This document shows, one piece after another, positions 38,783 to 63,047 of a stretch of 64,000 bases of DNA. The position numbers and the translations under genes were made by a program. The DNA is taken from the NCBI GenBank assembly GCA_021773395.1, contig JAJFKB010000004.1:26087-90086 (forward strand), given 5' to 3'. Origin of the DNA: Gammaproteobacteria bacterium (lineage in GTDB: Bacteria > Pseudomonadota > Gammaproteobacteria > Pseudomonadales > IMCC2047). Numbering within the stretch: position 1 is the first letter of the stretch; every line of letters starts with the position of its first letter. The notes beneath the pieces were generated by a model. That model was not told where the DNA came from. It ran no database searches and saw nothing but the letters and a program-made list of their open reading frames with translations.

Positions 38783-41284
38783 TCATCCGCTGTATTGCGC
38801 TAATATCGATTTAGGACTTTGTGTGACGGCCTTTCGAGTCACCAGATACCCCACGCCAGCAATCACTATTGCAGCCGCAAACGGCAAAGCAAACCATATC
38901 CAGATAACCAGCTCTCGATCCATGCGAAACAGGCGTCCATAAATATAGGTATTAATCATTTCGGCACCCAGTACAGCCAGCACACCGCTGAGAAGCCCCA
39001 GCATACCAAACTCCATCAAATTGTTGAGCGCGATAAATCGACGCCGCGCCCCCAGTGCACGCATTAACGCGCCCTCTCTGAGTCGCTCCCCCAAACTACT
39101 TTGAACGGCGGCCATCAATACCAAAAAACCGGTTAGCAGCACAAATACCAGCATGAGCTCTACGGCTGATGTCACCTGCCGCAAAATAGTACGAATTTGC
39201 TGAATAATCACATCCACTTCCAGAACTGTGACCGACGGAAACTGACTGACGAGGTCAATCAACAAACTCCGCTGCATCTCCTCTAATCGAAAACTGGTGA
39301 TGTAAGTAACAGGCAAGCCATCCAGCGCGCCCGGCGGTAAAATCATATAAAAATTCGGCGAAAAGTTTTCCCACTGCACGGTACGCAAACTCCGGACGCT
39401 AAATTGTCTCTGCACACCCGCTATATTAAAAACCAAACGATCTCCAAGTTTGATATTCAGCCTTTTCGCCAGCTCGGCCTCTACGGAAACAACATCTTTT
39501 TGGGCATTTTGACTCTCCCACCAGGCGCCATCAATAATTCTGTTATCGTCGGGTATGGTAGGGCTCCAGGTCAGATTCAGTTCTCTGTTTATCGATTCAT
39601 CATTACCAACCGGATCAACCCCACCAGGTTTTAGCAATCGATCATTTATGGCCATTAACCGACCACGAACCATCGGATAAACAGGTTCTCTACTGATGGA
39701 CCGTTGATCCAGAAACTGCTCAAACTGCTCGACTTCCTGCGGCAAAATGTTGAACGCAAAGTTATTGGGTGCGTCTTCCGGCAGCTGATTTTGCCAATTA
39801 CCCAGCAATTCCGTTCTTAACTGGGCAATAACCAGCATTAGCATCATCGTGACAGCAAAAGCTATGATTTGTCCGCTATTGCTACGAGCACGTCTGGCTA
39901 GAGTCGCCATTCCACGACCCGCCAATGAGTGCCTGAATCCAGAAATATTAACCCTGAGCCGCAGCAGACCGTAAACTAATGCCGCTAAAAGCAGTATCAG
40001 TACACCGACCGCGCTGAAAATCAGCAGTGTCAGCCAGATCTCCCTGGATAAAAGCACCACTAAAAGCAACAGCGCTGATAGCGCGACAGAATAGACAGTC
40101 CAGGCGCTCAGTGTCAGAGGAAGGAGATTGCGACGTATTACCCGTAAGGGGGGCACCTGTTTGAGCTTTAAAATCGGCGGCAATACCATTCCCCAAAGAA
40201 TAATAAATCCCGTAACAAACCCGGTTAGCAGAGGCTTAACGCCGGCGACTGGCAGCCTGGAAGGGATCAGTTCCTCTAACAGAGACAATAGCACCAGGTG
40301 CACATACCAGCCCAGCAAACAACCCACCACCCCTGCCAGCAATGCCAGCAATAGCATCTGAATCAAATAGAGATGCATGATCGTTTTTTGTGTTGCTCCC
40401 AGGCAGCGCAACATAGCGCTGACATCAAACTGGCGTTCACTATAGCCTTGTGCTGTGACCGCTATCGCAACAGACGCCAATAAAACTGCCATCAAAGCAA
40501 TGAGTCTAAGATAACGATCCGCGTTATTCAGCGCTTTGCTAGTGCCGCCCTTATCGGAGCGAATATCGATCAGCTTTTGTCCAGGCCCAAGTTGCGGAGC
40601 TAACCAGTCAGCAAACGATTTAACATTTTCTCCAGCATATAAATAGCTGTAGCGAACCCTGCTACCTGGCTGCACCACCTTTGTTTCATCCAGGTCATCA
40701 TGATTCATTAGCACCCGTGGCGAGAGATTAAAAAAATTGCTGCCGCGATCCGGCTCAAAGGTTAATACCCTGGTCACTGTGAAGGTTTTCACGCCAATGC
40801 TAATAGTCTCACCAAGGGTGATCCCCAGCCGGTCGATCACCCGCCGATCGGCCCAAACTTCCCCTTTATCTGGACGCTTTGAAACCGCATAATCATTACC
40901 ATAGCGGGTATCAGCAACACGCGGTTGCCCTCTCAGAGGGTATCCCGCACCAGCAGCCTTGACACTGGCCAGCAGAATCTTATCGTTACTCATTAATACC
41001 GTGCCGAACTCCGCCAGCTGCGTGGTCTGCAACCCGAATTCCAATGCAAAATCAAGCCATTCACGGTCAGGTGGTCGTGAACTCCGCAACACCAGATCGC
41101 CACCGATCAGCTCCGCCGATTGGGCCAGCAACGCTCTGCCGAGTCGATCCGAAAATAGACTGATGGTTGTCGTAGTCGCCACCGCAAGCACCAGTGCAAA
41201 CGCCAGTATACGAAATTCGCCCGATCGCGCTTCGCGTCGCGCAAATAATCCAGCAAGTCTGATCAGTTTCATCATTGGGCTCAT
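38783..41284 (-). CDS. ybbP: FtsX-domain ABC transporter permease YbbP
   Basis: 833 aa with two FtsX-like 4-TM modules separated by large periplasmic domains. Downstream of ybbA, as in E. coli. Confidence 0.85.
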   Translation of the reverse strand: MSPMMKLIRLAGLFARREARSGEFRILAFALVLAVATTTTISLFSDRLGRALLAQSAELIGGDLVLRSSRPPDREWLDFALEFGLQTTQLAEFGTVLMSNDKILLASVKAAGAGYPLRGQPRVADTRYGNDYAVSKRPDKGEVWADRRVIDRLGITLGETISIGVKTFTVTRVLTFEPDRGSNFFNLSPRVLMNHDDLDETKVVQPGSRVRYSYLYAGENVKSFADWLAPQLGPGQKLIDIRSDKGGTSKALNNADRYLRLIALMAVLLASVAIAVTAQGYSERQFDVSAMLRCLGATQKTIMHLYLIQMLLLALLAGVVGCLLGWYVHLVLLSLLEELIPSRLPVAGVKPLLTGFVTGFIILWGMVLPPILKLKQVPPLRVIRRNLLPLTLSAWTVYSVALSALLLLVVLLSREIWLTLLIFSAVGVLILLLAALVYGLLRLRVNISGFRHSLAGRGMATLARRARSNSGQIIAFAVTMMLMLVIAQLRTELLGNWQNQLPEDAPNNFAFNILPQEVEQFEQFLDQRSISREPVYPMVRGRLMAINDRLLKPGGVDPVGNDESINRELNLTWSPTIPDDNRIIDGAWWESQNAQKDVVSVEAELAKRLNIKLGDRLVFNIAGVQRQFSVRSLRTVQWENFSPNFYMILPPGALDGLPVTYITSFRLEEMQRSLLIDLVSQFPSVTVLEVDVIIQQIRTILRQVTSAVELMLVFVLLTGFLVLMAAVQSSLGERLREGALMRALGARRRFIALNNLMEFGMLGLLSGVLAVLGAEMINTYIYGRLFRMDRELVIWIWFALPFAAAIVIAGVGYLVTRKAVTQSPKSILAQYSG

Positions 41285-41360
41285 TGAACTCTATTCATCT
41301 TAACGCCGTTGATCCGGCTGTGACGTGACGCCAGGATACGCTTGTCATGGGAAGAGAGGC

Positions 41361-42059
41361 TTAATCCACAAGATAATCATCTGTGATTCGTCCTGCCTCC
41401 AGTTTAATAGCACGTTCACAGCGACTGGCCAGGTGCTCATCATGGGTAACCATTACCAGCGTGGTTGCCTGTTCACGATTCAATTCGAAAAGCAAATCGA
41501 TAATCTTTTCGCCGGTCGCGTTATCCAGATTACCCGTTGGCTCATCCGCAAACAGAATTGAAGGATTGGTCACAAAAGCCCGTGCAATAGCCACCCGCTG
41601 CTGTTCTCCACCAGACAACTGATTGGGATAATGTGTTTCGCGATTTTCTAAACCGACACGTTCCAGGTAAGCCCGGGCTTTCCCGGCAGGATCATCATCT
41701 CCCCGAATCTCCAGAGGTAACAGCACGTTTTCCAGCGCTGTCAGACTGGGTAACAATTGAAAGGACTGAAAAACAAAGCCTACATGTTGGCCTCTTACCT
41801 GAGCCCGCCCGTCTTCATCAAGTTGATTAAGATGATGACCGAATAAGACAACCTCCCCGCTGGTCGGCACATCCAATCCCGCCAACAAGCCCAGCAAAGT
41901 AGATTTACCGGATCCTGATACACCGATGACCGCGACAGATTGTCCAGACTTGATCTCCAAACTTACCTCAGACAAAATGGTCAAACCCGTATTAGCAATT
42001 GCAACTCGCTGAGTGAGATTACGTGCTATTAACACCGTCGGAGGTAAAGACATTTCCAT
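41361..42059 (-). CDS. ybbA: ABC transporter ATP-binding protein YbbA
   Basis: 232 aa. GVSGSGKST (Walker A), LSGGEQQRVAIARA (signature), ILFADEPTGNLD (Walker B). Colinear with E. coli YbbA. Confidence 0.92.
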   Translation of the reverse strand: MEMSLPPTVLIARNLTQRVAIANTGLTILSEVSLEIKSGQSVAVIGVSGSGKSTLLGLLAGLDVPTSGEVVLFGHHLNQLDEDGRAQVRGQHVGFVFQSFQLLPSLTALENVLLPLEIRGDDDPAGKARAYLERVGLENRETHYPNQLSGGEQQRVAIARAFVTNPSILFADEPTGNLDNATGEKIIDLLFELNREQATTLVMVTHDEHLASRCERAIKLEAGRITDDYLVD

Positions 42060-42712: not shown

Positions 42713-43825
42713 TTAGACTGCTGCAGTTTCTGCATCGGACTTATCAAAACGTCGCTTCCAGGATTTGCGTACCAGATGTGGTATCAGCAAATAAAGAGGC
42801 ATCCTGAGGTAGTGCGAGCGGATATACAGCAACCAACGCGCAAAACCCGTACCCGGCAGATCACAACTGGGATGATCTGGGCGCAATGCTCTTAAAAACA
42901 GTCCGTCCATTACTTTTTTCATAACAAAGTTGGGAGCACCGGCTGCCGCATCCTGCATGACCGTATCCGGTATCTCAGCCGCTAAAATCTGCTGTGCATA
43001 ATGCAGCCCGTAATAGAGGGGCCGAATTAAGTCCAGTTCTATTGCTCGCGGAACCAGGCGATCCCAGAACCCAGACTCATTTTCTGAAAAGTAACGCAGC
43101 AGCTCTTTGATATCAACCAGATCCCTGAGGCCGTGATCAAACTCACCTTCGTGGAACAGATGCGTGGCGCTGTGGATCACCATATCTTCGGGGCAGAGGG
43201 TGTAAACATTGTCTATCTGTGTTTTACGAAGCCGCTCAAACAACAGACTCGTGTTTGGATGATATTTAGCCGTTAGCGGCAGGATGGCATGATGAATATC
43301 AAGTGTTGTACCGTTTTTTAAATTCCTCATCGGCGGCAATTCATGCATCCATTTTCTGTAATAGAACTTGTCATAATTCGTTAAATTTACAGTAAACCAG
43401 CCTTTCCAGTTTAACGCGTCTGCTACGTGATCTAACTCGGCATGCGCTACCAGACAATCAATATCATTAAAAGATCTGCCAACGGAATGGCCCATCCCAG
43501 AGATCATGTAAGCCGCACCTTTCAATAATACAAGCGGCTGATCCTGCCTTAAAAATATTTTAGCCAGTCCTTTGACTTGCCAATCTACTTCCACTTTCTG
43601 GCGTTCCCAAAAGGTGAGTGCAGCTTGAAAATGTGCTTTTACTCTGTCAGAGAAATCTGCTTTTGGTATTTGGTAAATAAGACGATTGCCAACACTCCCC
43701 ATCAATAAAGAGGACTTGCACTGCCTTATTAGCAGCTCCCAGTCAGAGTCATTAAACTGATCCTGAATCTTAGCATTGCGAAGCAGTGATAACAGCAAAC
43801 TGGTTTGTTCAGGCAAGGCCATCAA
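42713..43825 (-). CDS. nucleotidyltransferase-fold protein (PF14907-type 'uncharacterised nucleotidyltransferase')
   Basis: 370 aa. GRSFNDIDCLVAHAELDHVADAL and TTLDIHHAILP match the remembered NTP_transf_5 pattern. Its start overlaps the kinase gene by 17 nt. Confidence 0.7.
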   Translation of the reverse strand: MMALPEQTSLLLSLLRNAKIQDQFNDSDWELLIRQCKSSLLMGSVGNRLIYQIPKADFSDRVKAHFQAALTFWERQKVEVDWQVKGLAKIFLRQDQPLVLLKGAAYMISGMGHSVGRSFNDIDCLVAHAELDHVADALNWKGWFTVNLTNYDKFYYRKWMHELPPMRNLKNGTTLDIHHAILPLTAKYHPNTSLLFERLRKTQIDNVYTLCPEDMVIHSATHLFHEGEFDHGLRDLVDIKELLRYFSENESGFWDRLVPRAIELDLIRPLYYGLHYAQQILAAEIPDTVMQDAAAGAPNFVMKKVMDGLFLRALRPDHPSCDLPGTGFARWLLYIRSHYLRMPLYLLIPHLVRKSWKRRFDKSDAETAAV

Positions 43826-44531
43826 TCATTCCTACGCCGATATCCAGGTCACCATTATATGAAAGTTCGTAACAGCTTGACTCCCGCATTAAGTGCTTCA
43901 TCGCATTAAAACCGTCGACACCAAGAATTCCATAATTAAAGGATAGCTCAGCCATCCGCATAAAAGTCGTCCCATCAGGAACTTTGCGCACCTCATTGTC
44001 AGCTTCTCTATCGTACCGGGGAATCACAATAAACCGGGGAGATACTGATTGCTGGGCCTTCTGGATACTATGTCCTGGAACTTTAAGATGAGCGACAGTC
44101 CCTTTTTGTGTGTCTTTCACCACATCACCGATTTGGGCATTGGAATCAAATTGCCGGATAATATCGATCGAATCATTTTTAAGACTCACTGGCCTGGGTA
44201 TTGGCACTAAACTATTGGTCTTCCAGTCATAGAGCGTCAACTCATCAGATAGTAGCCGCCAACCCCTTAACATCAGTGCTGCGGTCAATGTACTTTTACC
44301 CGCTCCGGGAAATCCAGGCATAATAATTGCGACACCATTTTTTTCTAAAACTCCAGCGTGAATAATTAAAAATTGGTGGCAATTCTGCGCGACACACCAA
44401 TTCAACCCCCATTCAAAAAAAGGGAATGCCTGATCTAAAGGGAGTGGTTTGAAGGGTGCCAGTTGATCCGCATAGAAATTCACCTGCTTTCTAAAATAAC
44501 GATGAATACCTTTGGATTGCCTTAAACACAC
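43809..44531 (-). CDS. HPr-kinase-related kinase ('HprK-related kinase A' type); true N-terminus probably extends upstream to about 44700
   Basis: P-loop MPGFPGAGKSTLTAAL followed by WRLLSDELTLY. The EWGLNW string is typical of this family. The track ORF starts at GTG 44531, but the same frame is open back to 44738 and encodes family-like sequence (see findings). Confidence 0.75.
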   Translation of the reverse strand: MCLRQSKGIHRYFRKQVNFYADQLAPFKPLPLDQAFPFFEWGLNWCVAQNCHQFLIIHAGVLEKNGVAIIMPGFPGAGKSTLTAALMLRGWRLLSDELTLYDWKTNSLVPIPRPVSLKNDSIDIIRQFDSNAQIGDVVKDTQKGTVAHLKVPGHSIQKAQQSVSPRFIVIPRYDREADNEVRKVPDGTTFMRMAELSFNYGILGVDGFNAMKHLMRESSCYELSYNGDLDIGVGMIDGLA

Positions 44532-44707
44532 AAAAAAATCTGCGAATGCAGATGATTCTTGCTGAGGGTAATCAGTATAAAAAAACTCAACACCAGCCAG
44601 GACACTGGGGATATCGGACTGTACTCGAACTCTAACGGGGCCTATTTCTACAACGAACTCGCCGGCGTGAAGAAGTTGTTTAAAATTATTAAGTTTACTT
44701 ATCTTCC

Positions 44708-45004
44708 TTATTCCCTTTCTTCTATAAGGAAAATTTCCTTAAGCGATTCCAGAGTATCGGTTAAGCTCTGCGGCGATTCTGACGCTGATGTATCGCTTAT
44801 CGGCCACCGCAAATCTCCTTCAGGCAAACTCTTATGTTCTAGCAAAAGAAACAGCACGTTAGCCGCATTATTATCTAAAAGGTGTGTATTGCCTGTACCA
44901 GGGTGATAAACGAGATAGCCATCTTCCATCTCACACAAATCAAATTCGACTGGCACCAACTGCCAATTCCCTACACTCAACTTAATTTGCCCAACCCAAA
45001 TCAA
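44708..45004 (-). CDS. PqqD-family protein (HPr-rel-A-system type)
   Basis: 98 aa. GYLVYHPGTGNTHLLDNNAANVLFLLLEHKSL...LTDTLESLKEIFLIE follows the RRE/PqqD beta3-alpha3 pattern. The TTG start lies 6 nt after the upstream stop. Confidence 0.7.
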   Translation of the reverse strand: MIWVGQIKLSVGNWQLVPVEFDLCEMEDGYLVYHPGTGNTHLLDNNAANVLFLLLEHKSLPEGDLRWPISDTSASESPQSLTDTLESLKEIFLIEERE

Positions 45005-45010
45005 GCTGGA

Positions 45011-45775
45011 TTAATGATAGGTACGATTAAAGAAGTCCTTTAAATCACCGGCATACAGTTTGTTACCACCACTGGTTTGATAATAATCATATCCACTAAG
45101 GGCATATTCACGATACATATCAACTACTAGCGCCGGACTAATATAAAAAGCAAAATTCTTCGGGTTGCCGTTGGCAAATAAATTAGCATTGAGATAACCT
45201 GCCACGAAATGTCGTTCAACAGAATTACTATCCTCCATTACCTGCAGCAAAGTGGTCGCTGAATCACCATTACCTGGAAGAACGCCGAACTTAGCATAAA
45301 AGGTACTCGGTACGCCACTAGTTGGCAGATCGACTCCGTGATGTTCATAGAAATTTATTTCAAGCGTTGTTTTATCACCTCTATCGTTAACTACAATGTC
45401 AATAGTATGGTCGCGCGGATATGGGTAACACCCAGCAGCTACCCAGTCATGTACGCTGCCATCTTGATTTCCACCTTTTCTTGCATTTTCGCGCCAACCA
45501 CCGGGCGAGAAACCTCCACAACGAAAAGCCAGATCATGGTTGCCAGACATATTACCCGACATAAAGCCCGATGGAGAACAGATATAGCCTAGCCTGCCGT
45601 CCCCAAGGACGGAGCTGCTCGCCAAAGTAGCCAGCACGGCGGTCCCACCAAAAACCAGTTTCCTTCGCGCTTGAACAGGTGCTTTGTCAGCTTCCCCTTT
45701 ACTTGGGATCAAAGCTCCCTGCGTTTCACTTGATTGATCTTTATTATCCACTTTGCCAACCATAATAGTCCTCAT
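45011..45775 (-). CDS. secreted orphan protein (RR-containing signal-like N-terminus), no recognisable family
   Basis: 254 aa. Long polar N-region, ARRKLVFGGTAVLATLASSSVLG hydrophobic core, then a Cys/Gly-rich segment (YICSPSGFMSGNMSGNHDLAFRCGGFSPGGW). First gene of the cassette. Confidence 0.6.
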   Translation of the reverse strand: MRTIMVGKVDNKDQSSETQGALIPSKGEADKAPVQARRKLVFGGTAVLATLASSSVLGDGRLGYICSPSGFMSGNMSGNHDLAFRCGGFSPGGWRENARKGGNQDGSVHDWVAAGCYPYPRDHTIDIVVNDRGDKTTLEINFYEHHGVDLPTSGVPSTFYAKFGVLPGNGDSATTLLQVMEDSNSVERHFVAGYLNANLFANGNPKNFAFYISPALVVDMYREYALSGYDYYQTSGGNKLYAGDLKDFFNRTYH

Positions 45776-46031: not shown

Positions 46032-46880
46032 TTATTTAATCTCGTTTAATAACGCTTTAATGTGTTTCGCTGGAACGGCATAGGCGATGCCACTGGGGTT
46101 TGCCAAAGCCGCTTCCTTTGTGCCCTTTACAAACACTTTATTAATCACACCAATTACCTCACCGGAATCAGTATCATAAAGTGGGCTGCCGCTGTTACCC
46201 GGATAAGCGGTGGCATCCAGCTGAAACACCCGATAAGGCTCCTTTAAACGCCGTATCAGTTTGGGGTTAAGCTGACCCGAGTGAAACGCAGGAATCGCGA
46301 TCGGCGTAATACTCGACACAATTCCCTGGTGGGTTACAGGATATAACCCCAGTACAGCACCAATAGGGAAACCAGTAAAAGCGTAGAGCTGCCCTTCTTT
46401 AACGGACGCGGAAGAACCGATACGCAGCGCCGGCAGCACCGGCCCCTCCAGTATTCGCAACAGAGCCAGGTCATGCTCATCATCGCGTTTTACAATCTCA
46501 ACTTTAAGTACCTTTGGCGATCTCCCTGTACCCACAAAAACCACCCGCCGCTCCTTCTTAAGCTCTTTCAACTCCTCTGCCACCACATGAGCATTGGTAA
46601 TCACATAGCGTCCATCGGCCACGACAAATCCGGTACCTGTTAAATTTGAACGCGGCTGCCTGATTGGCAGATAGGTTCCTACGCCGACAATAGAGGGCTT
46701 AATTTTGACGATAGTTTCCGGTAGAGAAGATGTTTCTGCCTTTAATAAAAATGGCAAACTCAGAAAGAAAAGACACAGGCAATAACATGCCACGCAACGA
46801 TGCCATTTATGGGTGACTATAGATTTAGCTGCAAGCATTCTATTCCCCATCATCCCTATTTTTTCCTCTGAATCTCTCAA
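46032..46880 (-). CDS. trypsin-like serine protease (S1C/DegP-like catalytic domain, no PDZ), membrane-anchored or secreted
   Basis: Catalytic triad contexts: VITNAHVV (His), HDLALLRI (Asp), GNSGSPLYD (Ser). N-terminal hydrophobic segment CYCLCLFFLSLPFLL. The start is uncertain (TTG 46880, or an ATG 27-42 nt inside). Confidence 0.8.
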   Translation of the reverse strand: MRDSEEKIGMMGNRMLAAKSIVTHKWHRCVACYCLCLFFLSLPFLLKAETSSLPETIVKIKPSIVGVGTYLPIRQPRSNLTGTGFVVADGRYVITNAHVVAEELKELKKERRVVFVGTGRSPKVLKVEIVKRDDEHDLALLRILEGPVLPALRIGSSASVKEGQLYAFTGFPIGAVLGLYPVTHQGIVSSITPIAIPAFHSGQLNPKLIRRLKEPYRVFQLDATAYPGNSGSPLYDTDSGEVIGVINKVFVKGTKEAALANPSGIAYAVPAKHIKALLNEIK

Positions 46881-47198
46881 CTAACCAGACAAGCGCTCTA
46901 TAACCATCATTAATCCAGACAAAAAAAACAAAAGTAACGCAATAAACACAGCTGCTGATCCCAGGTCTTTAGCTCGGCCGGCCAACTCTGCATATTCCTC
47001 TGTAACCAAATCGACGACTGCCTCAATAGCAGAATTAAGTAACTCAACCACAAGCACTAACAAAACAGCAGAAATTAACAGTACAGATTCCAAAACAGTT
47101 TGACCAAGCCAAAATGCCAATGGCACCAGTATCAGCGCTAAAAAAAATTCCTGCCGAAACGCCGCTTCCTTTTTCCAAGCAACAGCGATTCCATGCAT
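46881..47198 (-). CDS. dgkA: diacylglycerol kinase DgkA lacking its N-terminal helix because of an in-frame TAG upstream
   Basis: 105 aa. AWKKEAAFRQE, VLLVLVVELLNSAIEAVVD, EYAELAGRAKDLGSAAVF are colinear with E. coli DgkA residues about 18-122. Upstream, the frame reads GTG(47255)-PKPCKNGLSRID-TAG(47216-47214)-ATGYS-ATG(47198). Confidence 0.7.
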   Translation of the reverse strand: MHGIAVAWKKEAAFRQEFFLALILVPLAFWLGQTVLESVLLISAVLLVLVVELLNSAIEAVVDLVTEEYAELAGRAKDLGSAAVFIALLLFFLSGLMMVIERLSG

Positions 47199-47273: not shown

Positions 47274-50200
47274 TTATGCATCTTCATTGTTATTAGCAAC
47301 TACTGGTACCCGAGTGTGCAACCATCCAGCAAAAAACACCAGGTAAAAGAGAAAAGTCAGCTTAGGGAAATCAAACAGACTGGACGTCAAACCAACGATT
47401 AGAAAGCTTACAATCGATACCGCATATATCGCTGCAAGCAAATCATTTCTTGCAGCCATGGTAGCTAACCTGATCAAAACAATAGCCACCATAAAGAAAA
47501 ACAAAAGCAGCCCCGCCCAACCCTGCTCAAACCAGACCTGCAGAGGCAGATTCTCAATATGCCAGCGTAAATGATCGTCGCTGATGAAAAACCAGCGCTC
47601 GTAAGTCGAGGAAAAATTACCATTAGCCATTAACTCCTCACCATCACTGACATGTATGCTAATATCGTCGATACTTAAGCCTTTACCTCCATGCACATAT
47701 AGCGAGAAAAATACTGGTCGGAGAAACTGAGCCCAGTTTTGGTGGTTCAAATACTGGATTTGGTGAGTGTACGTCGCCCACTCACCAACCTTATTAGGCC
47801 GCACCATTCTAGATACACAACGATCGGAATAAAGTAGTACTTGCTCACACAGCGAGACAGCCAACCTTTCCTTACCCGTTTCCGGACGCAAAGCGATTGA
47901 CACATCATAATACAGCTCTGCTTCAGGTCTGATGCGTTGTACTATATAATAGGCACCCCCCGCCGCGATGTGTAAATAGCTATTTTCTCCCTCAGAGCGG
48001 AAATCATGAATAGGAAGAGGTTTTGGGATCAGGTTAGCCGCATAATACTCTCTTGGGAAAGAGCCCAGCCCCGCACCAAAAAAGTTATATATAAATCCTT
48101 TGGGTTTGTTGTCAATCGTATCTGCCCAATGATTCAAGCGAGTTTGCATATCCCTTTCTGTCGCATCAATTCGTGACTTGAAAAATGGCGACTGATAAAT
48201 CGGAATAGCTACAAACGCAATAACAATAAATACGGGAATAGCCACCTTGCAAAAAGCCATTGCCGACCTTACCTGTCTAGCATATATCACCAATGCTACA
48301 AACCCTATAAACGTTATGGTTAATAGCGCGATCCTTGAGTAGGTCACAAGTAGCGCGTAGCAAGCTAATGCCAACAGAATGAGCCCAACTGGAAGGGCCC
48401 ATCGTTTTGGCAAAAGGTAGCCAGCACCCATAAGGAAGGGAATGGTAACTGCCAAATATCCATCGATCATGCCCCCACCAGTATGTAAAGATGAAAATAG
48501 TCCAGTGGCACGATAAGCCTGTGAGAAATTCAACACCCCTGGAAAAAGGGCTCTTTCCCAAATTATTAACCCAACTGTCGCTAAAAAGCCCAATAACATC
48601 CCGGTTATCAAATAGCGTTTCACCTGCCCCTGATCGCTATATACTGATTGCAGGGCTGGTAGAAGTAGCAACATTAATACAAAACCCTTTACAACCCGTA
48701 ACGCATTATAATTACTTAAATAACTACTAAAAGTACTTGATTCAAATTCTGGCAGAGGCCAAATGCCGACAATCAAACTGATCAAAACCGAGAGACTATA
48801 GAGCGTAATCAACACTCGGGTACCTTTTGTGAACTCCAGCTTTGATGAGGATCTGGATAGTAAAGTGCCAACAACAGTCGCTAACACAAAAAAATCAAAT
48901 TCTGTAATAAAAAACCACCCTGTGTGAGAAGCGAAATCCAGTAACGGCATTAATACCGGCAAAACCAAGAGCCAACAGTGGGGGTATTTAAACAAGCATC
49001 CAATGTATACAATTATTCCGAGAAACAACCAAATTCTGCCAACCGGATACATCCCCATAACTAAAAATAAGGGAACGAGAATAGCACCACCCAAAATCAC
49101 CCTAATTAGTCGAGTATTTATCGGCTTATTAGCAACAGACAAAACAGGCTCAGAATCAGATAGATATCGATCATCCGCTAATGTTTCCTGCTTAGATCCC
49201 GATAATTGATTGAGTAACCACATTCCAATTAAAAAAAAGACCCATGTTGAAACCATGGCAACCAACACATTGGTATAATCCGGATGTTTCGCAGAAAGAA
49301 AAAGCTTTCCTGTTTCTAGAACTAGTGCCAACAACGCACCCACAACAGGAGCGAAACTGCGCATCACCTGCAGCCTAGACTGAGAACCTAAACCCGATAA
49401 CAACAACCCCACTCCTAAAGGCGCATACATTGCAAAGTTAAACAAAAGGCTGCGTACGGCACTAGCTTCAGTTGAGAAGTAATGATAATAAAAGGGTATC
49501 AACGCTTTATATTCAAAGCCATCCAGAGGACGTTGCCATGAATGGCTAAACCAGCCATTAAAAAGCATTAAAAATAACAGATAGGCAAGAGCCAACCAAA
49601 ACCAAAAACGGTACATCAAATCAATCACCGGCTGGACACGATTAGCTCGTAGCCATTGAGCACCCCAATACCCCACCCCCGTGCCAATAGCGCCAAGTAT
49701 AATCGAGCCACCTTCTGTCACTGCTGAAGCTACAAATATCTGGATGCCTTCGATAAACAAAGCCATTAATGCCCCTGCAGCTATTGCCCGCTTTAAACCT
49801 CGATTTTGAAAATTCCATACAGAAGATAGGAGTGCACCAAAAGGTATGAATACGATACAAAAGCCTGCTCTACTGGCGGAAATGCGCAAAGATAATTTAT
49901 TTCCATAGTCAATAAAAAACAAAGCAACCTGATCGCTTCTTAATTTCTGCATCAATTCATCGAATGAAACCAGCACATCGAAAGGGAAAAAGCTAAACAG
50001 AAACAATATTACAAAGTATCCATAAAAAACATTACGAAATGCTTTGCGACCACCCGCAGACCACCCACTCAAACTTCTGCCCAGTATCATCCAAACGGCA
50101 ACGCCTAACACACTGCCAATGACCTCGGCTAGCAAGTCATTTAACGAAACTGTGCGCGGCGCAAAGAAGATCTGTACAAATTCAATCAAAGTAGCGAGGA

Positions 50201-50519
50201 TCAAACAAAATCCAATTACGACCAACGCACCAATAATTTTTCCCAACTGAATACGCCGACCTCGATCGAAACTAGCCATCATCATAAACGCTAGAGGTAT
50301 ATAAAGCAGAATATTGGCAACCCAATCACCCCGAGATGCTATGCCCAACTGTAGGTAACGAATATTTTTAAAAGCACTAATCGCTTCAGGGAAGCTATAG
50401 TCGCGAAGTTCAAAGGGTATGAGGCTGCCGTACACAATAAAAAATAGGTACGCCAGCACCAACAGATGAAGCCGGTCGGTTATCTTTTGAGAGAAGCTGG
50501 CTGGCTGTGGCATATGCAA
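47274..50519 (-). CDS. large polytopic membrane protein: N-terminal VanZ-like module(s) fused to an O-antigen-ligase (Wzy_C)-like module and an extracytoplasmic domain
   Basis: 1081 aa. VanZ-like YGSLIPFELRD...GDWVANILLYIPLAF. More than 20 hydrophobic segments. Wzy_C-like ...CYALLVTYSRIALLTITFIG.... A soluble stretch of about 230 aa (RIDATERDMQTRLNHW...WFFISDDHLRW) precedes the last TM segments. Confidence 0.65.
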   Translation of the reverse strand: MHMPQPASFSQKITDRLHLLVLAYLFFIVYGSLIPFELRDYSFPEAISAFKNIRYLQLGIASRGDWVANILLYIPLAFMMMASFDRGRRIQLGKIIGALVVIGFCLILATLIEFVQIFFAPRTVSLNDLLAEVIGSVLGVAVWMILGRSLSGWSAGGRKAFRNVFYGYFVILFLFSFFPFDVLVSFDELMQKLRSDQVALFFIDYGNKLSLRISASRAGFCIVFIPFGALLSSVWNFQNRGLKRAIAAGALMALFIEGIQIFVASAVTEGGSIILGAIGTGVGYWGAQWLRANRVQPVIDLMYRFWFWLALAYLLFLMLFNGWFSHSWQRPLDGFEYKALIPFYYHYFSTEASAVRSLLFNFAMYAPLGVGLLLSGLGSQSRLQVMRSFAPVVGALLALVLETGKLFLSAKHPDYTNVLVAMVSTWVFFLIGMWLLNQLSGSKQETLADDRYLSDSEPVLSVANKPINTRLIRVILGGAILVPLFLVMGMYPVGRIWLFLGIIVYIGCLFKYPHCWLLVLPVLMPLLDFASHTGWFFITEFDFFVLATVVGTLLSRSSSKLEFTKGTRVLITLYSLSVLISLIVGIWPLPEFESSTFSSYLSNYNALRVVKGFVLMLLLLPALQSVYSDQGQVKRYLITGMLLGFLATVGLIIWERALFPGVLNFSQAYRATGLFSSLHTGGGMIDGYLAVTIPFLMGAGYLLPKRWALPVGLILLALACYALLVTYSRIALLTITFIGFVALVIYARQVRSAMAFCKVAIPVFIVIAFVAIPIYQSPFFKSRIDATERDMQTRLNHWADTIDNKPKGFIYNFFGAGLGSFPREYYAANLIPKPLPIHDFRSEGENSYLHIAAGGAYYIVQRIRPEAELYYDVSIALRPETGKERLAVSLCEQVLLYSDRCVSRMVRPNKVGEWATYTHQIQYLNHQNWAQFLRPVFFSLYVHGGKGLSIDDISIHVSDGEELMANGNFSSTYERWFFISDDHLRWHIENLPLQVWFEQGWAGLLLFFFMVAIVLIRLATMAARNDLLAAIYAVSIVSFLIVGLTSSLFDFPKLTFLFYLVFFAGWLHTRVPVVANNNEDA

Positions 50520-50636: not shown

Positions 50637-50889
50637 ATGAATAAGTCTAGCAAGTATGCCTGGCTGGATACACACAAAGATACAATTACCGCTGCCATCG
50701 CTGATGCTGCAACGGATTTATGGTGAGACAGCGAATACGTCCGCAGCAATGCCGAATCTGTTGAAGGATGTCAGTTCGAACGGCGGAATTGTTTCCTATT
50801 GCTATGAGGCAGGGCCCTGCGGGTATGATCTCTACCGCCAGACCAGTGGTTCTGAACATGAGTGTGGTGTTGCGGCCCCCTCGTTGTAA
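50637..50889 (+). mobile_element. IS110-family transposase N-terminal remnant (frameshifted and truncated)
   Basis: ATG 50637 follows GAGGAGGA. The first frame reads MNKSSKYAWLDTHKDTITAAIADAA..., stopping at 50724-26. It continues in the next frame as RIYGETANTSAAMPNLLKDVSSNGGIVSYCYEAGPCGYDLYRQ...VAAPSL-stop-stop. The (G)LDxHKD and YEAGPCGY strings are typical of the IS110 DEDD N-terminal domain. Only about 85 of about 350 codons remain. Confidence 0.7.
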
Positions 50890-50980
50890 TAAATTCTGCG
50901 CTCAACCCTTTAAAACTACCCCTTTTAGGCTAATATCATCCTATACTTATAAACCGGCAGTCATCATTAAAATTGCACCT

Positions 50981-52579
50981 ATGATTTCACTTCTCCACGA
51001 CAGCATTATCCATCACGCGAGCCTAACACCTGATTCGACAGCACTGTGCTATAAGGATCAGAAACGCAACTATCAGGCGCTGCACCAGGAAATCTCCAAC
51101 TGCGCGCACCAGCTGATTGAAGCCGGTTTAGCGGCAAATGACCGCGTCGCGATCTACCTGCCAAAACAGCTTGAAAACGTGATCAGTATGTACGCCACCT
51201 CGTTGGCGGGTGGTATCTTTGTACCACTCAATCCCGGACTGAAACCCCATCAGGTTGAACATATTCTCAGAGACAGCGGCGCGCGATTTCTGGTCAGCGC
51301 TAAAGACAGGATTCAGCGTCTTGCAGAGGTTTTTCCGCAATGCCCCTCACTGGAACACGTTATATCGGTCGACACGTTCGCCAGCCAGGAAGCCAACGGC
51401 AATGTATCCATGCACGAATGGGAACAGTTCACCCAACCGCTCACCCAACCCATAGACAATCAAAATATCACCTTGCCAGAACGAATTGATGCTGATCTGG
51501 CGGCTATTCTGTACACCTCAGGGAGTACCGGAAGGCCCAAAGGCGTTGTGCTTTCCCACCGCAATATGGTGACCGGCGCCAAAAGTGTCAGCAGCTATCT
51601 GAAAAACACCGCGCAGGATGTGGTGCTGGCGGTGTTACCCTTTAGCTTTGACGCAGGTCTCAGCCAACTCACCACCGCCTTCCAGGTTGGCGCATGTGTG
51701 GTCTCCATGGACTACCTGCTACCACGGGACGTCATTAAAGCCATTGATCGCTATCAAGCAACCGGGCTGGCAGCCGTACCACCACTCTGGAACCAACTAG
51801 CAACCCTTGAGTGGCCCGAGCAGACAGCCAAATCATTACGCTATATTACCAATACCGGAGGTGCCATGCCGCGCGCCACACTGGATCGTTTGAGAAAAGC
51901 ACTGCCGGAAACGCAGATATTTCTAATGTACGGATTGACCGAAGCGTTTCGCTCCACCTACCTCGATCCCAGCCAGCTGGATGCCAGACCAGGCTCAATG
52001 GGCAAAGCCATTCCCAGCGCCCAGATCCTGGTAGTTCGTGAAGATGGCAGCGAATGTGATCCTGAAGAGCCTGGTGAACTGGTACATCGGGGAGCATTAG
52101 TTGCCCAGGGCTACTGGAATGACCCGATCAAGACCGCAGAGCGATTCAAACCCGCCCCCGGACAACCTAAAGAACTGCCCAATCCGGAGCTTGCGGTCTG
52201 GTCGGGTGATCAAGTCAAGAAAGATAGCGAAGGTTACCTCTATTTCATCACGCGCAAAGATGAAATGATAAAGACATCAGGCTATCGGGTCAGCCCCACA
52301 GAGATCGAAGAGGAGTTGTACGCCAGCACTATGGTGGTTGAAGCAGTTGCATTCGGAGTGGCACACCCCATGCTGGGACAAGCCATCGTCGCCGTTGTGC
52401 AGGCCAACGAGGGATTCGCCGAGAAGGATATCCTGCGATACTGCCAGCAAAACCTGGCCAACTACATGGTGCCCCAGAAACTGGTTATTTATCAGGAATT
52501 ACCGCGTAACCCAAATGGTAAAATTGATCGTAATCTGTTGAAAAATGAGTTTAACTCGATATTTGATGAGCAAGACTGA
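50981..52579 (+). CDS. AMP-forming acyl-CoA/acyl-ACP ligase (exosortase-A-system-associated type)
   Basis: Start reset to ATG 50981 (MISLLHDSIIHHA...). [65 protein letters not shown]. Confidence 0.85.
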   Translation: MISLLHDSIIHHASLTPDSTALCYKDQKRNYQALHQEISNCAHQLIEAGLAANDRVAIYLPKQLENVISMYATSLAGGIFVPLNPGLKPHQVEHILRDSGARFLVSAKDRIQRLAEVFPQCPSLEHVISVDTFASQEANGNVSMHEWEQFTQPLTQPIDNQNITLPERIDADLAAILYTSGSTGRPKGVVLSHRNMVTGAKSVSSYLKNTAQDVVLAVLPFSFDAGLSQLTTAFQVGACVVSMDYLLPRDVIKAIDRYQATGLAAVPPLWNQLATLEWPEQTAKSLRYITNTGGAMPRATLDRLRKALPETQIFLMYGLTEAFRSTYLDPSQLDARPGSMGKAIPSAQILVVREDGSECDPEEPGELVHRGALVAQGYWNDPIKTAERFKPAPGQPKELPNPELAVWSGDQVKKDSEGYLYFITRKDEMIKTSGYRVSPTEIEEELYASTMVVEAVAFGVAHPMLGQAIVAVVQANEGFAEKDILRYCQQNLANYMVPQKLVIYQELPRNPNGKIDRNLLKNEFNSIFDEQD

Positions 52580-52605
52580 TGGATTTTAGGCAAATCGACC
52601 TAAGC

Positions 52606-52756
52606 GCCCTCATCCCAACCTTCTCCCAAAGGGAGAAGGAGTCCTCTATTGGGAGAGGCATTTACAATTTGCCGACACATCGGTTATCCCCTCTCCCTCT
52701 GAGAGAGCACCAAACTATCATCCCCTCTCCCTCTGGGAGAGGGTTAGGGTGAGGGC
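52606..52756. repeat. cluster of REP-like units
   Basis: gccctcatcccaaccttctcccaaagggagaaggag, cccctctccctctgagagag, cccctctccctctgggagagggttagggtgagggc. Lies between the ligase and decarboxylase genes. Confidence 0.7.
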
Positions 52757-52794
52757 CTTAACGGCTCAACACATAAACTAACCAAAGAGCACCA

Positions 52795-54033
52795 ATGAAC
52801 AAACCAAAACCACAACACGTACCGATGGATCAATTTAAAACAGCCGACAACTGTTTACTAGTCAATGGCCAATCTGTGCTGGAAATCGCCCAAAAACTGG
52901 GCCGCACACCATTCTACGCCTACGACAGCAACCTGATGACAGCTCGAGTCAAGCAGCTGCGCGAAGCTCTACCGAAAGAGATCCACCTCCATTACGCTAT
53001 GAAAGCCAACCCCATGCTCGAAGTTGTCAAGCACATGGCCGATCTGGTCGACGGTCTGGACGTAGCCTCAAAAGGCGAACTCGAAGTGGCGCTGCAGACA
53101 GGAACCGCACCTGGCAATATCAGTTTTGCTGGCCCCGGAAAAAGAGACGAAGAGCTTCTGGCCGCAATTGAGGCGAAAATCACCATCAACGTTGAGTCGG
53201 AAGGCGAACTGGCTCGCATCGACAAAATTGCTACCCGATTGGGAAGCAAACCCAATATTGCCATTCGTGTGAACCCTGATTTTGAGTTGAAAAGCTCCGG
53301 TATGAAAATGGGAGGCGGCCCCAAGCAATTCGGTATCGATGCCGAACGGGTGCCCGCTGTATTAAAACACCTCGCAAATCTGGATTGCCATTTCAGAGGT
53401 TTCCATATATTCAGCGGATCGCAGAACCTCAAACCCGAAGCAATCATTGAAGCTCATGACAAAACCTTTGAACTGGCGATTCGCCTCTCCGAATACGCAT
53501 CGACACCAGTGGAATTGCTCAATATTGGCGGCGGGTTCGGCATCCCCTATTTCCCCGGAGAAAGCCGTCTGAATCTGGAACCCATTGTCGCCAACCTGAA
53601 CCGCCTGTTGCCCGAAGTTCTCAGAGCGCTACCCGAAACAGAAATCGTTACCGAACTCGGCAGATACCTGGTCGGTGAAGCCGGCGTTTATATCTGTAAA
53701 ATCATTGATAAAAAAGTGTCCCGAGGTCATACATTTTTAATTGTGGATGGTGGCTTACACCATCACCTCTCCGCCTCCGGGAATTTCGGACAGGTGATAC
53801 GCAAAAACTACCCGGTAGCTGTGGCCAACCGAATGGAAAGAAGTGAGGAAAAAGAGCTGGTTTCAGTAGTAGGGCCACTCTGCACACCGCTTGATCTGCT
53901 GGCGGATAAGGTAGAACTACCTGTGGCAGAACCGGGCGATTTAATTGCTGTTTATCAGTCGGGCGCTTATGGGTACAGCGCCAGCCCGCATGGGTTTTTG
54001 AGTCATCCTTGCGCCAGAGAAATATTGGTTTAA
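52795..54033 (+). CDS. PLP-dependent decarboxylase (Orn/DAP/Arg decarboxylase fold type III; exosortase-A-system-associated type)
   Basis: 412 aa. HYAMKANP (PLP Lys), NIGGGFGIPY, ELGRYLVGEAG, CTPLD, YQSGAYGYSAS. Confidence 0.85.
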   Translation: MNKPKPQHVPMDQFKTADNCLLVNGQSVLEIAQKLGRTPFYAYDSNLMTARVKQLREALPKEIHLHYAMKANPMLEVVKHMADLVDGLDVASKGELEVALQTGTAPGNISFAGPGKRDEELLAAIEAKITINVESEGELARIDKIATRLGSKPNIAIRVNPDFELKSSGMKMGGGPKQFGIDAERVPAVLKHLANLDCHFRGFHIFSGSQNLKPEAIIEAHDKTFELAIRLSEYASTPVELLNIGGGFGIPYFPGESRLNLEPIVANLNRLLPEVLRALPETEIVTELGRYLVGEAGVYICKIIDKKVSRGHTFLIVDGGLHHHLSASGNFGQVIRKNYPVAVANRMERSEEKELVSVVGPLCTPLDLLADKVELPVAEPGDLIAVYQSGAYGYSASPHGFLSHPCAREILV

Positions 54034-54076
54034 AGATGTAATAAAAAATCTCTCAATTAAATATCACCTAGAAGAA

Positions 54077-54928
54077 ATGCCTAAAATAACCAGTTTGAAA
54101 AAGTTTTTGAAAAACACTCTAAAAAAAATAGGAGTAAATTACTATCGCATATTTGCACCATATGGTAACGATGATCTGGCCGAATGCTTCTTAAAGCTAG
54201 GGCTAAAGAAATCAGATAATGTTTTTGTGCACTCCTCCTATGACAAGTTTCTGGGTTTCAACGGAAAACCGTACGACGTTATAAAATCGATCCAAAAAAT
54301 CATCGGGGAAACAGGCACTTTATTGATGCCATCTATGCCTTTTGGAGATTCAGCGTACCGCTATATAAGTTCGGGAAAAAAGTTTGATGTACGTAAAACA
54401 CCCTCGGCGATGGGACTGCTAACGGAACTTTTTCGCAGAGATCCAGATACCATACGAAGTGCTCACCCGACTCACCCGATACTTGCAAATGGCCCCATGA
54501 CCGATGTTTTCGTTGCCAACCATGAGCAAGCAACAACTCCCTGCGGTAAATACAGCCCTTTTGATAAACTGGCCGAACTTGATGGTAAAATATTGCTGTT
54601 AGGTACAGGCATCCAGGTACTCACTTTTTTCCACTATCTCGAGGAGCGCTTCGAGGAAGCCATTCCTCGATCCCCGTTTACCGAGGACCAATTTATAGTT
54701 ACTTTCTTTGATGAGAACGCCAAAGAGATAACTGTACAAACTCGCCTTTATGATCAAAATATTTCCAGAAGCAGGAACCTTGTACCATTAGAGCAACAAC
54801 TCAAAACCAACGGCCAATGGCAACGTTCAAAACTAGGTGCCCTCGAAATTGTAGTACTTAGTGTTGGCGATATCGTTAAGGCCTACCAGCAACTAATTGA
54901 AAAGAATATTTTTTGTTATGACGAATAA
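54077..54928 (+). CDS. AAC(3)-family (Antibiotic_NAT fold) N-acyltransferase
   Basis: 283 aa. VFVHSSYDKFLGF...GTLLMPSMPF, MGLLTELFRR..D.IRSAHPTHPILANG, GKYSPFDKLAELDGKILLLGTG...TFFHYLEE. Confidence 0.75.
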   Translation: MPKITSLKKFLKNTLKKIGVNYYRIFAPYGNDDLAECFLKLGLKKSDNVFVHSSYDKFLGFNGKPYDVIKSIQKIIGETGTLLMPSMPFGDSAYRYISSGKKFDVRKTPSAMGLLTELFRRDPDTIRSAHPTHPILANGPMTDVFVANHEQATTPCGKYSPFDKLAELDGKILLLGTGIQVLTFFHYLEERFEEAIPRSPFTEDQFIVTFFDENAKEITVQTRLYDQNISRSRNLVPLEQQLKTNGQWQRSKLGALEIVVLSVGDIVKAYQQLIEKNIFCYDE

Positions 54929-56804
54929 ATCAAACTCAATTGCCGATGATCAGCTAAGGCCAGAGTTTTCCTCCGCATGCGAATCAGGGGATTACTGGAA
55001 AAGCAAAGCGGCGGCAGATGCAATACTTAAACAGAACAGTTCCGGGGCATCAATCCGTTACCTAGTAGGTACAATTAAGCAAAACGCCGCAAATTTTGAA
55101 AATATTAAAAATATTAGGCTGGCCCTTCTCTCTTCCTACTCGATTGAGTTCATAAGGGATGCCCTCTACCTGAGTTTCTTTCGGAATGGTCTGCTATTAG
55201 ATATCTACCAACCGGGCTTTAATCAATTCCGTCAGGAAATTCTGGATCCAGATAGCTCCCTGTACGCATTCAACCCCGACATCCTAATACTATCCGTTGA
55301 GGGTGCGCATTTGTGCCCTCTGCTCTATCAACACTCATCGGTCAAAAATTCAGATTTGTTGGAAGACACCATCAAAGAGGTCCACCAACTAATCACTACT
55401 TTCCGAGAAAGAAGCACTTCGGCAATTATAGTTCAAAACCTATCACCGCAAATTTACCCCGGTCTAGGGGTAGGCGATTCAAATTCACTCTATAGCACCC
55501 GGCAGTTAGTGCATCAAATAAACCATCAGCTCACACAATTGGCCTCAGAAAACAGAGGCATCTATATACTCGATTATGATGCATTAGTTGCTAAATATGG
55601 TGGATTAAACTGGCGCGATGAAAGGATGAACTTTTACGCACAGGTGCCGATTAATAAAAATGTGTTTATATTACTCGCCAAAGAGTTTGCCAAAATCGTA
55701 CGCATACTTTTTGGAGGTGCAAAAAAGTGTTTAGTCGTGGATTTAGACAACACTCTTTGGGGAGGAATACTGGGAGAAGACGGCCCAGATAATATACAAA
55801 TTGGCCCCGTTTATCCGGGAAATGCATTTAAAGCATTTCAAGAGGCACTGCTTAGCCTCAAGAGCAGAGGGGTCATATTGGCTATCGCCAGCAAAAATAA
55901 TTTGAGTGACGTTAAAGAAGCCTTCACAACTAACACTCATATGGCATTAAAGCTAGATGATTTCTCAGATAAACAGATCCATTGGCAGGAAAAATCACTC
56001 TCCTTGATGGAAATAGCTACAAACCTGAATATCGGGCTGGAGCATATGGTGTTTGTCGATGATAACCCTGTTGAATGTGAACAAATAAAACAGAGCCTAC
56101 CAATGGTTGAGGTTATAAACTTCCCAAAGCAACCAGAAAACTATGCAGCGTGCTTATTTGAAGAGGGGTTTTTTGATACACTCCAGGAATCAAGGGAAGA
56201 CATGCAAAGAGCATCCCTCTATAAACAAAGGTCAGATGCGGAAGCTTTCCGCAAACAAGCATCCAATATGAAAGATTTCTACCGAGGGCTGCAAATGGAA
56301 ATCCAGTTTGCAAAGGTAGATGATAAAAGCGTCACCCGCACCGCACAGCTAACTCAAAAAACGAATCAATTCAATGCGACGACACAACGCTACTCCGAGG
56401 CAAATCTTGAAGTAATGATGGCTGATGACAATTGGTGCTTATATAACTTGTCCGTTAAAGATAAATTCGGAGACAATGGCATTGTCGGAGTTTTATTCGC
56501 TCAAATTAAGGATGATATCTTTATCATAGATACTTTCCTGTTAAGCTGCCGAGTTATAGGGCGAACCGTTGAGAGGGCAATGCTCGCGTTTCTTTGTACA
56601 CAAGCCAGGTTAAATAGACTATCTTTTCTAGTGGGAAAGATTCATTTTACGCCAAAGAACATGCCGGTCCGTGACGTATATAAAGATTTTGGGTTTGAAG
56701 AGATTCATAGCACTCCAGAGGAAACACAGTGGCGACTGGAGGTCAATAAGGCAAAAACTGATTTCCCGGATTGGTTTCAGATAAATGACAAGGTCAACTC
56801 TTAG
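54918..56804 (+). CDS. FkbH-like protein (HAD-IIIC phosphatase/acyl-loading domain with C-terminal GNAT-like domain)
   Basis: CLVVDLDNTLWGGILGEDG (HAD motif I), ILAIASKNN, VFVDDNPVE. C-terminal ...FLLSCRVIGRTVE. ATG 54918 overlaps the upstream stop by 11 nt (an alternative TTG lies at 54897). Confidence 0.85.
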   Translation: MTNKSNSIADDQLRPEFSSACESGDYWKSKAAADAILKQNSSGASIRYLVGTIKQNAANFENIKNIRLALLSSYSIEFIRDALYLSFFRNGLLLDIYQPGFNQFRQEILDPDSSLYAFNPDILILSVEGAHLCPLLYQHSSVKNSDLLEDTIKEVHQLITTFRERSTSAIIVQNLSPQIYPGLGVGDSNSLYSTRQLVHQINHQLTQLASENRGIYILDYDALVAKYGGLNWRDERMNFYAQVPINKNVFILLAKEFAKIVRILFGGAKKCLVVDLDNTLWGGILGEDGPDNIQIGPVYPGNAFKAFQEALLSLKSRGVILAIASKNNLSDVKEAFTTNTHMALKLDDFSDKQIHWQEKSLSLMEIATNLNIGLEHMVFVDDNPVECEQIKQSLPMVEVINFPKQPENYAACLFEEGFFDTLQESREDMQRASLYKQRSDAEAFRKQASNMKDFYRGLQMEIQFAKVDDKSVTRTAQLTQKTNQFNATTQRYSEANLEVMMADDNWCLYNLSVKDKFGDNGIVGVLFAQIKDDIFIIDTFLLSCRVIGRTVERAMLAFLCTQARLNRLSFLVGKIHFTPKNMPVRDVYKDFGFEEIHSTPEETQWRLEVNKAKTDFPDWFQINDKVNS

Positions 56805-56822
56805 TCAGAAGGAATAAAACAA

Positions 56823-57059: not shown

Positions 57060-57076
57060 TCGAACAACTGGAAAAT

Positions 57077-63032: not shown

Positions 63033-63047
63033 GTATCTGAGTATCCT

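Follow-up and report, generated by a model that had tools for sequence, protein, structure and literature searches.

Linear polyphosphorylated peptides (LPPs) were recently described from Bacillota (Popov et al, Nat Commun 2026, PMC13381572). Their gene clusters bring together a recognition element for ribosomally synthesised and post-translationally modified peptides (RiPP recognition element, RRE) with an HprK-like kinase and an NTP_transf_5 enzyme. These clusters contain no cyclase and are often embedded in capsule or exopolysaccharide (EPS) loci. LPP precursors comprise 35–200 aa and vary at the C-terminus, whereas the N-terminus is conserved, and the kinase adds several phosphates to Ser3 of the core, just past a signal peptidase-type leader cleavage site. 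LPPs are presented as restricted to Bacillota, with no mention of Proteobacteria or of twin-arginine translocation (Tat), and Supplementary Data 2 of the same paper names NTP_transf_5 and PqqD (PMC13381572). Related chemistry is known from lasso peptides: in pseudomycoidin, an HprK-like kinase phosphorylates the terminal serine, and PsmN, an "uncharacterised NTP transferase" that needs residues D134 and D136, attaches one or two hexoses once the peptide is phosphorylated (PMC6993621). Here, we analyzed a four-gene cassette with the same three enzyme families at positions 42713–45775 of a 64,000-nucleotide stretch of a gammaproteobacterial contig (JAJFKB010000004.1; hereafter, the window). It is best regarded as a variant of the LPP type found in Proteobacteria, with a new family of putative protein-sized, Tat-type precursors.

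The four open reading frames (ORFs) are co-directional on the minus strand, with the boundaries given in the original prediction, which had been made from the DNA letters alone. In order of transcription, they encode a 254-aa predicted Tat-exported protein, the probable precursor or substrate, whose family has no Pfam or NCBIfam model (lead protein; 45011..45775); a PqqD-family RRE, the HPr-rel-A system peptide chaperone (44708..45004); an HprK-related kinase A, most likely of 297 aa with a non-canonical ATA start (43809..44702); and a 370-aa nucleotidyltransferase-fold enzyme (NTase) of the family PF14907, or NTP_transf_5 (42713..43825). Profile searches bore out the family assignments proposed for the trio. 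The kinase scores 328.4 bits against TIGR04352 (cutoff 200), even when a shortened 240-aa ORF is used, the NTase reaches 163.8 bits against PF14907 (gathering score 31.2), and the 98-aa PqqD-family protein narrowly passes TIGR04353 with 36.4 bits (cutoff 35). With both curated cutoffs passed by kinase and PqqD protein, the cassette is, by profile match, a member of the HPr-rel-A system; the family names used in the original prediction are borne out by NCBIfam, which lists "HprK-related kinase A" and, for the partner, "HPr-rel-A system PqqD family peptide chaperone". NCBIfam models only these two components of the system; the lead family is unmodeled, and for the NTase there is only the generic PF14907. 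The motifs reported for the kinase (GFPGAGKST at 44315–44289 and LLSDE at 44255–44241) and for the NTase (NDIDCLV at 43468–43448 and LDIHH at 43303–43289) are all present, NDIDCLV containing the DxD motif.

The lead gene proved to be a universal neighbor of this trio when loci were surveyed, as had been suggested for a check on the original prediction. A scan of one genome per species yielded at least 578 kinase loci, and 80 of these entered the comparison; the resulting set comprises 87 loci, compared as 16-kb stretches, 82 of them non-redundant, with homologues assigned by local iterative profile search. The lead family adjoins the trio in all 81 informative non-redundant loci. Far from being an orphan, as first described, the lead protein has homologues in 85 of the 87 loci (81 of the 82 non-redundant ones, the exception ending 210 nt upstream of its kinase), and an exhaustive HMMER search retrieved 4275 representatives at E ≤ 1e-3, a number that falls to 1508 at E ≤ 1e-10. 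This exhaustive search was required, as word-indexed searches with the lead protein are insensitive (4 and 13 matches). A PqqD orthologue occurs in 86 of the 87 loci by local profile, and the NTase adjoins the kinase in 85. In all but three loci, which are from Sedimenticola (L026, L042, L059), the lead gene directly precedes the PqqD gene; in those three, a lead-family gene follows the NTase on the opposite strand. The lead protein belongs to the system as its fourth, universally conserved component.

The cassette is not tied to one chromosomal site. Its hosts are Beta-, Gamma-, and Alphaproteobacteria, Desulfuromonadota, and Acidobacteriota, with a stable architecture throughout, and the flanks of close relatives are wholly different while the four genes move together. 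The nearest relative of the kinase (60% identity) is encoded among the same four genes, with an Rnf complex and endonuclease III on the downstream flank, and in Methylocaldum, the four genes lie between genes for the electron transfer flavoprotein (ETF) and UbiA. With the same order in 80 further loci from other species, the architecture is far beyond chance. All four genes are under purifying selection, with a ratio of non-synonymous to synonymous polymorphism (pN/pS) of 0.29 for the lead gene and 0.08–0.12 for the others (0.09 for the PqqD gene); by this measure, the lead gene is the fastest-evolving of the four, as expected of a precursor. From one stop codon to the next, the median distances in cassette loci are 306, 914, and 1097 nt, too short for a further ORF to fit within the cassette. 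The 6-nt gap reported between the lead ORF and the PqqD gene holds provided that the latter starts at the TTG at 45004; the gene caller picked a later start, which yields 82 instead of 98 aa. The kinase and NTase genes overlap by 17 nt from the TTG start of the NTase, as predicted, and by 14 nt from the adjacent ATG. A scan for promoters and terminators gave no more signals than shuffled sequence. The four genes are best explained as an operon that works as a protein-sized, RiPP-like maturation unit, an explanation that we consider about as likely as not.

The lead protein itself has no match in Pfam or NCBIfam, and an exact-sequence lookup found none because the gene caller had set a different start. 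When 35 diverse members of its family were compared with both databases, no family match was obtained, apart from a weak match of one member to the Tat signal HMM TIGR01409 (E 0.0053; the only one of the 35 at E < 0.01) and single chance-level Pfam matches. The N-terminal part of the protein begins with a 35-aa polar n-region followed by a twin-arginine signal-like segment, ARRKLVFGGTAVLATLASSSVLG (residues 36–58; 45599..45670, minus strand), whose arginine pair is invariant in the 35 diverse members. Both arginines are found in 82 of 83 unique family sequences, the remaining ORF having been shortened by the gene caller. The family consensus reads SRRxFxK, followed by an uncharged stretch and by small residues at positions −3 and −1 (V-L-G or V-x-A). 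From the arginine pair, the hydrophobic stretch, and these small residues, we predict that the lead protein is exported by Tat. The n-region spans about 20–45 polar residues in the family, is almost devoid of aromatic residues (0.1% Y, 0.1% W, 0.7% F), and contains no YxxP motif.

Beginning 29–33 residues past the arginine pair, members of the family share the motif C-x-SPSGF-x-SGN-x-S...C-G-x-SPGxW. In the window, this is C66-SPSGFMSGNMS...C86 (45518..45580, minus strand), in which conservation and low model confidence point to S69, S73, and S77 as candidate modification sites. The sole invariant positions among the 35 members are R37, R38, S69, S73, and N196, while C66, S77, C86, W94, and W111 are conserved in at least 90% of them. 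AlphaFold2 (AF2) predicts residues 1–86, including the serine motif, to be disordered, with a predicted local distance difference test score (pLDDT) below 50 in the motif. Residues 87–254 (45014..45517, minus strand) form a putative folded C-terminal domain with pLDDT mostly of 85–94, whose conserved elements are SPGxW, W111, F163, and HxVAxxLN196. A Foldseek comparison of the model with the PDB gave no match (best E 0.49). Related domains also occur elsewhere: a protein of 808 aa (P0135) carries at least six tandem copies of the C-terminal domain (GCxPxFW...VVAALLNA...CP) and lacks the serine motif. Thus, the serine motif has been added at the N-terminus only in the family linked to the cassette, and the C-terminal domain, judging from these sequences, is an independent module without a database model.

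The kinase scores 19 bits against the true HprK model, for which the cutoff is 240. Its AF2 model (pLDDT 94.1, predicted TM-score 0.91) matches ATP-dependent phosphoenolpyruvate carboxykinases (PEPCKs; E ~4e-7, TM ~0.5) as well as HPr kinase/phosphorylases (E ~1e-4), and the modeled fold is that of the PEPCK-like P-loop kinases.

As listed, the kinase ORF has 240 aa and starts at a GTG at 44531, and its match to TIGR04352 begins only at profile position 45. In agreement with the uninterrupted open frame described from the PqqD end into the kinase, the open frame of the kinase reaches back to 44738, although no ATG, GTG, or TTG precedes the GTG at 44531. The 57 codons upstream of this GTG (44532–44702) align with the N-termini of homologues, invariant residues included, and in this alignment an ATA at 44702 stands where the homologues have ATG ("ISK" here versus "MSK"). 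An independent assembly (L001) and a metagenome-assembled genome from another sample (L007, 93–95% nucleotide identity) show the very same junction between the PqqD and kinase genes; across the 57 codons, there are 7 synonymous and 3 non-synonymous differences (pN/pS 0.12), and AF2 models them with confident secondary structure. On the strength of the alignment, the identical junction, the low pN/pS, and the confident fold, the kinase most likely comprises 297 aa and initiates at the ATA, 5 nt past the PqqD stop codon, probably by translational coupling. Two other explanations for the absent start codon were rejected. A sequencing error is opposed by the identical junction in L001 and L007, and a fusion of PqqD and kinase by −1 frameshifting finds no X_XXY_YYZ slippery site at the junction and is also opposed by the homologues, where the two are separate, usually overlapping genes. 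Gene callers shorten the kinase to the 240-aa form.

As the PqqD-family protein of the window passes its cutoff narrowly, we built a family profile from 30 orthologues. The 98-aa protein has no Pfam PqqD match, and PF05402 is matched by 11 of the 30 orthologues. The best PDB matches of the profile are lasso peptide RREs, namely TbiB1 (E 0.0033), TfuB1, and 9x90_B, the last annotated as a "lasso peptide biosynthesis PqqD family chaperone". The NTase sequence found no relative in the PDB; it shares the family NTP_transf_5 with the LPP NTP transferase.

Compared with the LPP clusters, the cassette has the same discrete PqqD-type RRE, HprK-like kinase, and NTP_transf_5 enzyme and likewise no macrolactam cyclase. 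In LPP precursors, the modified serine lies just past a signal-type cleavage site, and S69 and S73 have the corresponding predicted position in the lead protein. They differ in several respects. LPP clusters have a dedicated SipW-like signal peptidase, whereas the neighbors of the cassette include no S26-type peptidase, the adjoining protease being trypsin-like; and LPP clusters have an MsbA-like exporter, whereas the cassette has none and seems to rely on its Tat-type signal. A nearby ATP-binding cassette (ABC)/FtsX pair at 38783–42059 lies past an opposite-strand GDSL lipase gene, and no homologue of the pair was found among the families that recur beside the cassette in other loci. The LPP leader motif YxxPxVLxHQxIxFETxxS was not found in the lead family, which is unrelated to the LPP precursors and has a folded domain, and the cassette occurs in Proteobacteria and other phyla, LPPs having been described from Bacillota only.

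Likewise, the cassette shares with the paeninodin and pseudomycoidin clusters an RRE (B1), an HprK-like kinase, and a DxD NTP-transferase (NDIDCLV in the window), and the precedents invoked for phosphorylation and for decoration by a nucleotidyltransferase-fold enzyme are real (PMC6993621). Lasso clusters additionally have a cyclase, a B2 protease, and a short precursor, none of which is present in the cassette, and their modified serine is C-terminal, whereas the conserved serines of the lead protein are N-proximal. No Asn-synthase domain was found in any window ORF of at least 400 aa, in line with the predicted lack of a lasso cyclase; among the 82 loci, no conserved family has the size of a cyclase or a B2 protein; and no B2 transglutaminase-like protease was seen among the annotated genes around the cassette (small ORFs elsewhere were not all scanned). 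For a short precursor with a YxxP leader, there is no space for a small ORF in the cassette. The proposal that the trio has been uncoupled from lasso formation therefore stands as regards the missing cyclase, but the concept itself already has a precedent in the LPPs of Bacillota (PMC13381572). A further parallel, by analogy only, is offered by the redox enzyme maturation proteins of the Tat pathway (TorD, DmsD, NapD), small cytoplasmic proteins that hold a twin-arginine precursor until its maturation is complete; their fold family differs from the winged helix of PqqD-type RREs. Searches of the literature for HPr-rel-A, TIGR04352, and PF14907 returned essentially nothing, a search that combined RRE, Tat, and exosortase found no earlier description, and the cassette goes unmentioned in the 2006 PEP-CTERM paper. 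The lasso-less concept has been published and the cassette is not specific to this window, whereas the Proteobacterial system and its substrate are uncharacterized.

Since no other ORF fits within the cassette, the best-supported reading, to which we give about even odds, is that the lead protein is the substrate of the trio, and the co-transcribed secreted protein named among the possible targets in the original prediction is upheld as the best substrate candidate. In its favor, the invariant S69 and S73 lie in a segment that is predicted to be disordered, at a fixed distance of 29–33 residues from the arginine pair and ahead of a confidently predicted fold. On this model, the lead protein would be made in the cytoplasm with its long polar N-terminus and twin-arginine signal, and its N-terminal region would be bound by the PqqD-family RRE; because no YxxP-type motif exists, the signal and the serine-motif segment are the docking candidates. 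With the protein presented in this way, the HprK-like kinase would phosphorylate, perhaps repeatedly, one of the invariant serines of C-x-SPSGF-x-SGN-x-S, in a segment directly past the predicted signal cleavage site. The PF14907 enzyme could then extend the phosphate with a sugar or a nucleotide, as suggested by analogy with PsmN, after which the modified, folded protein would exit via Tat and lose its leader to signal peptidase. In many species, the product might act at the cell envelope together with the XrtA/PEP-CTERM exopolysaccharide machinery, an idea that we put forward only cautiously. A more elaborate version of this model is tentative and, in our estimation, somewhat unlikely: the Tat signal would double as a RiPP-style leader, and PqqD would serve like a Tat proofreading chaperone that keeps the precursor of about 200 aa cytoplasmic until kinase and PF14907 enzyme have assembled a phosphodiester-linked (phospho-glycosyl or phospho-nucleotidyl) group on one invariant serine, whereupon Tat would export a product that primes, anchors, or organizes XrtA/PEP-CTERM-type EPS on the cell surface. 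If true, this version would add to the secreted proteins of hundreds of Proteobacterial species a new class that is made by ribosomes and modified post-translationally.

Several points weigh against the lead protein as substrate of a RiPP-like unit. The Tat assignment derives from sequence features, and TIGR01409 matched 1 of 35 members; the n-region before the arginine pair is nearly free of aromatic residues and shows no conserved motif for RRE docking; the protein is far larger than classical RiPP precursors; its folded domain is also found in other proteins without the serine motif; and the PqqD copy of the window is only just above the TIGR04353 cutoff. As to the enzymes, the chemistry of PF14907 members is established for PsmN alone, LppN was inactive in the heterologous host of the LPP study (PMC13381572), and for the Proteobacterial system as a whole, each chemical step is drawn by analogy.

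Several of these points would also fit a trio that modifies another target, such as PEP-CTERM proteins, a small peptide encoded at a distance, or a polysaccharide intermediate, with the lead protein as a co-regulated secreted partner (a binding protein, receptor, or carrier). The absence of a recognizable leader motif upstream of the arginine pair and the independent occurrence of the folded domain as tandem repeats would be explained, as would the exosortase A-associated genes in the window and the XrtA/PEP-CTERM EPS export genes that abut about 29 of the 82 loci. Yet the four genes also move into contexts unrelated to EPS (Rnf, ETF/UbiA, and PrmC/glutaredoxin), no further conserved ORF fits in the cassette, and the invariant serines lie in a disordered segment. 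Moreover, to our knowledge, every characterized RRE binds peptides encoded in its own cluster, as is generally held for RiPPs. We therefore regard another target as possible but somewhat unlikely.

That the cassette is the remnant of an ordinary or decayed lasso cluster, with its cyclase, protease, and precursor lost or located elsewhere, might be suggested by the lasso B1 proteins as nearest solved relatives of the PqqD profile and by the kinase and the NTase, since the HprK-like and NTP_transf_5 families are both typical of lasso tailoring. This is highly improbable given the purifying selection on all four genes, the stability of the architecture across Proteobacteria classes, Desulfuromonadota, and Acidobacteriota, and the negative results for Asn-synthase-like domains in the larger window ORFs and for conserved cyclase- or B2-sized families. 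Scarcely more credible is an action of kinase and NTase on a small molecule or on a protein of the phosphotransferase system (PTS) type, as in HPr/NPr-like signaling or aminoglycoside-type nucleotidylation, with the PqqD-like protein as a regulator. The kinase fold does match PEPCK and HPr kinase/phosphorylase, modeled PsmN resembled aminoglycoside nucleotidyltransferases (PMC6993621), and the window encodes PtsP (EI-Ntr). However, PtsP lies 18 kb away and is unlinked in other loci, the kinase falls far short of the cutoff of the true HprK model, and the strict co-conservation with an RRE-type and a serine-motif protein argues for a protein substrate.

Modification of the lead protein, if confirmed, would extend the newly described phosphorylated linear RiPP chemistry from peptides of Bacillota to proteins that Proteobacteria export by Tat. 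Such chemistry would thereby also be tied to the XrtA/PEP-CTERM polysaccharide systems of flocs and biofilms, in which the biochemistry of the proteins has hardly been explored. At least 578 species-level genomes carry the cassette, and the kinase family counts thousands of sequences. By connecting the HPr-rel-A cassette to a universally adjacent, unmodeled protein family with invariant serines in a predicted disordered segment, the analysis makes the substrate hypothesis directly testable.

The cassette had been placed inside an EPS locus. Such a locus does adjoin it, but the cassette sits at the edge of this XrtA-type EPS locus, and an EPS context is found at only about one third of the loci. 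To its right lie the exosortase A-associated genes TIGR03098, TIGR03099, TIGR03100, and TIGR03101, and to its left genes for the GDSL lipase, the ABC/FtsX pair, an acetyl-CoA synthetase, and a thiolase. The XrtA/PEP-CTERM genes beside the cassette in the roughly 29 non-redundant loci mentioned above encode the export protein TIGR03027, the chain-length determinant TIGR03007, the tyrosine kinase TIGR03018, the outer-membrane protein TIGR03016, and PrsT. In about 16 of the 82, the cassette lies between the PrmC and glutaredoxin genes, mostly with NtrC alongside, and other loci have unrelated neighbors. Thus, the linkage of the cassette to EPS is frequent, not obligatory. A recurring sigma-54 regulator, considered as an EPS marker, was dropped, as it is NtrC and not PrsR.

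The claim that the cassette comes without any protease was too strong. Small intergenic ORFs lie upstream of the lead gene. Directly upstream on the same strand, the window encodes a trypsin-like S1 secreted serine protease related to HtrA (46032..46880, minus strand; PF13365, 97.7 bits, without a PDZ match), and a homologue is found in 27 of the 87 loci, usually 1–2.5 kb upstream of the cassette. It is possible that this protease is an accessory or processing enzyme for the lead protein, or it may simply be part of the EPS locus.

Three further ORFs of the window have no Pfam or NCBIfam match, one of 621 aa (30406–32271, minus strand), one of 432 aa (58465–59763, plus strand), and one of 324 aa (25661–26635, plus strand). 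Unrelated to the cassette by position are two adjacent sigma-54 activators of the XylR_N/V4R type (63–3542, plus strand) and PtsP, which has a GAF domain (23026–25263, minus strand). Upstream of the protease follow a small diacylglycerol kinase gene (46881–47198, minus strand) and a gene for a 1081-aa fusion of VanZ-like and Wzy_C (O-antigen ligase-like) domains (47274–50519, minus strand); homologues of this fusion occur near the cassette in six other loci. The window showed no gene for the exosortase itself. The region 50768–64000 encodes the XrtA-associated acyl-CoA ligase TIGR03098, the pyridoxal phosphate-dependent decarboxylase TIGR03099, and hydrolases 1 and 2 (TIGR03100 and TIGR03101), together with an AAC(3)-like acetyltransferase (54077–54928) and an FkbH-domain protein (54897–56804). 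The same region also encodes a short-chain dehydrogenase/reductase and a glycosyltransferase of the GT4 family.

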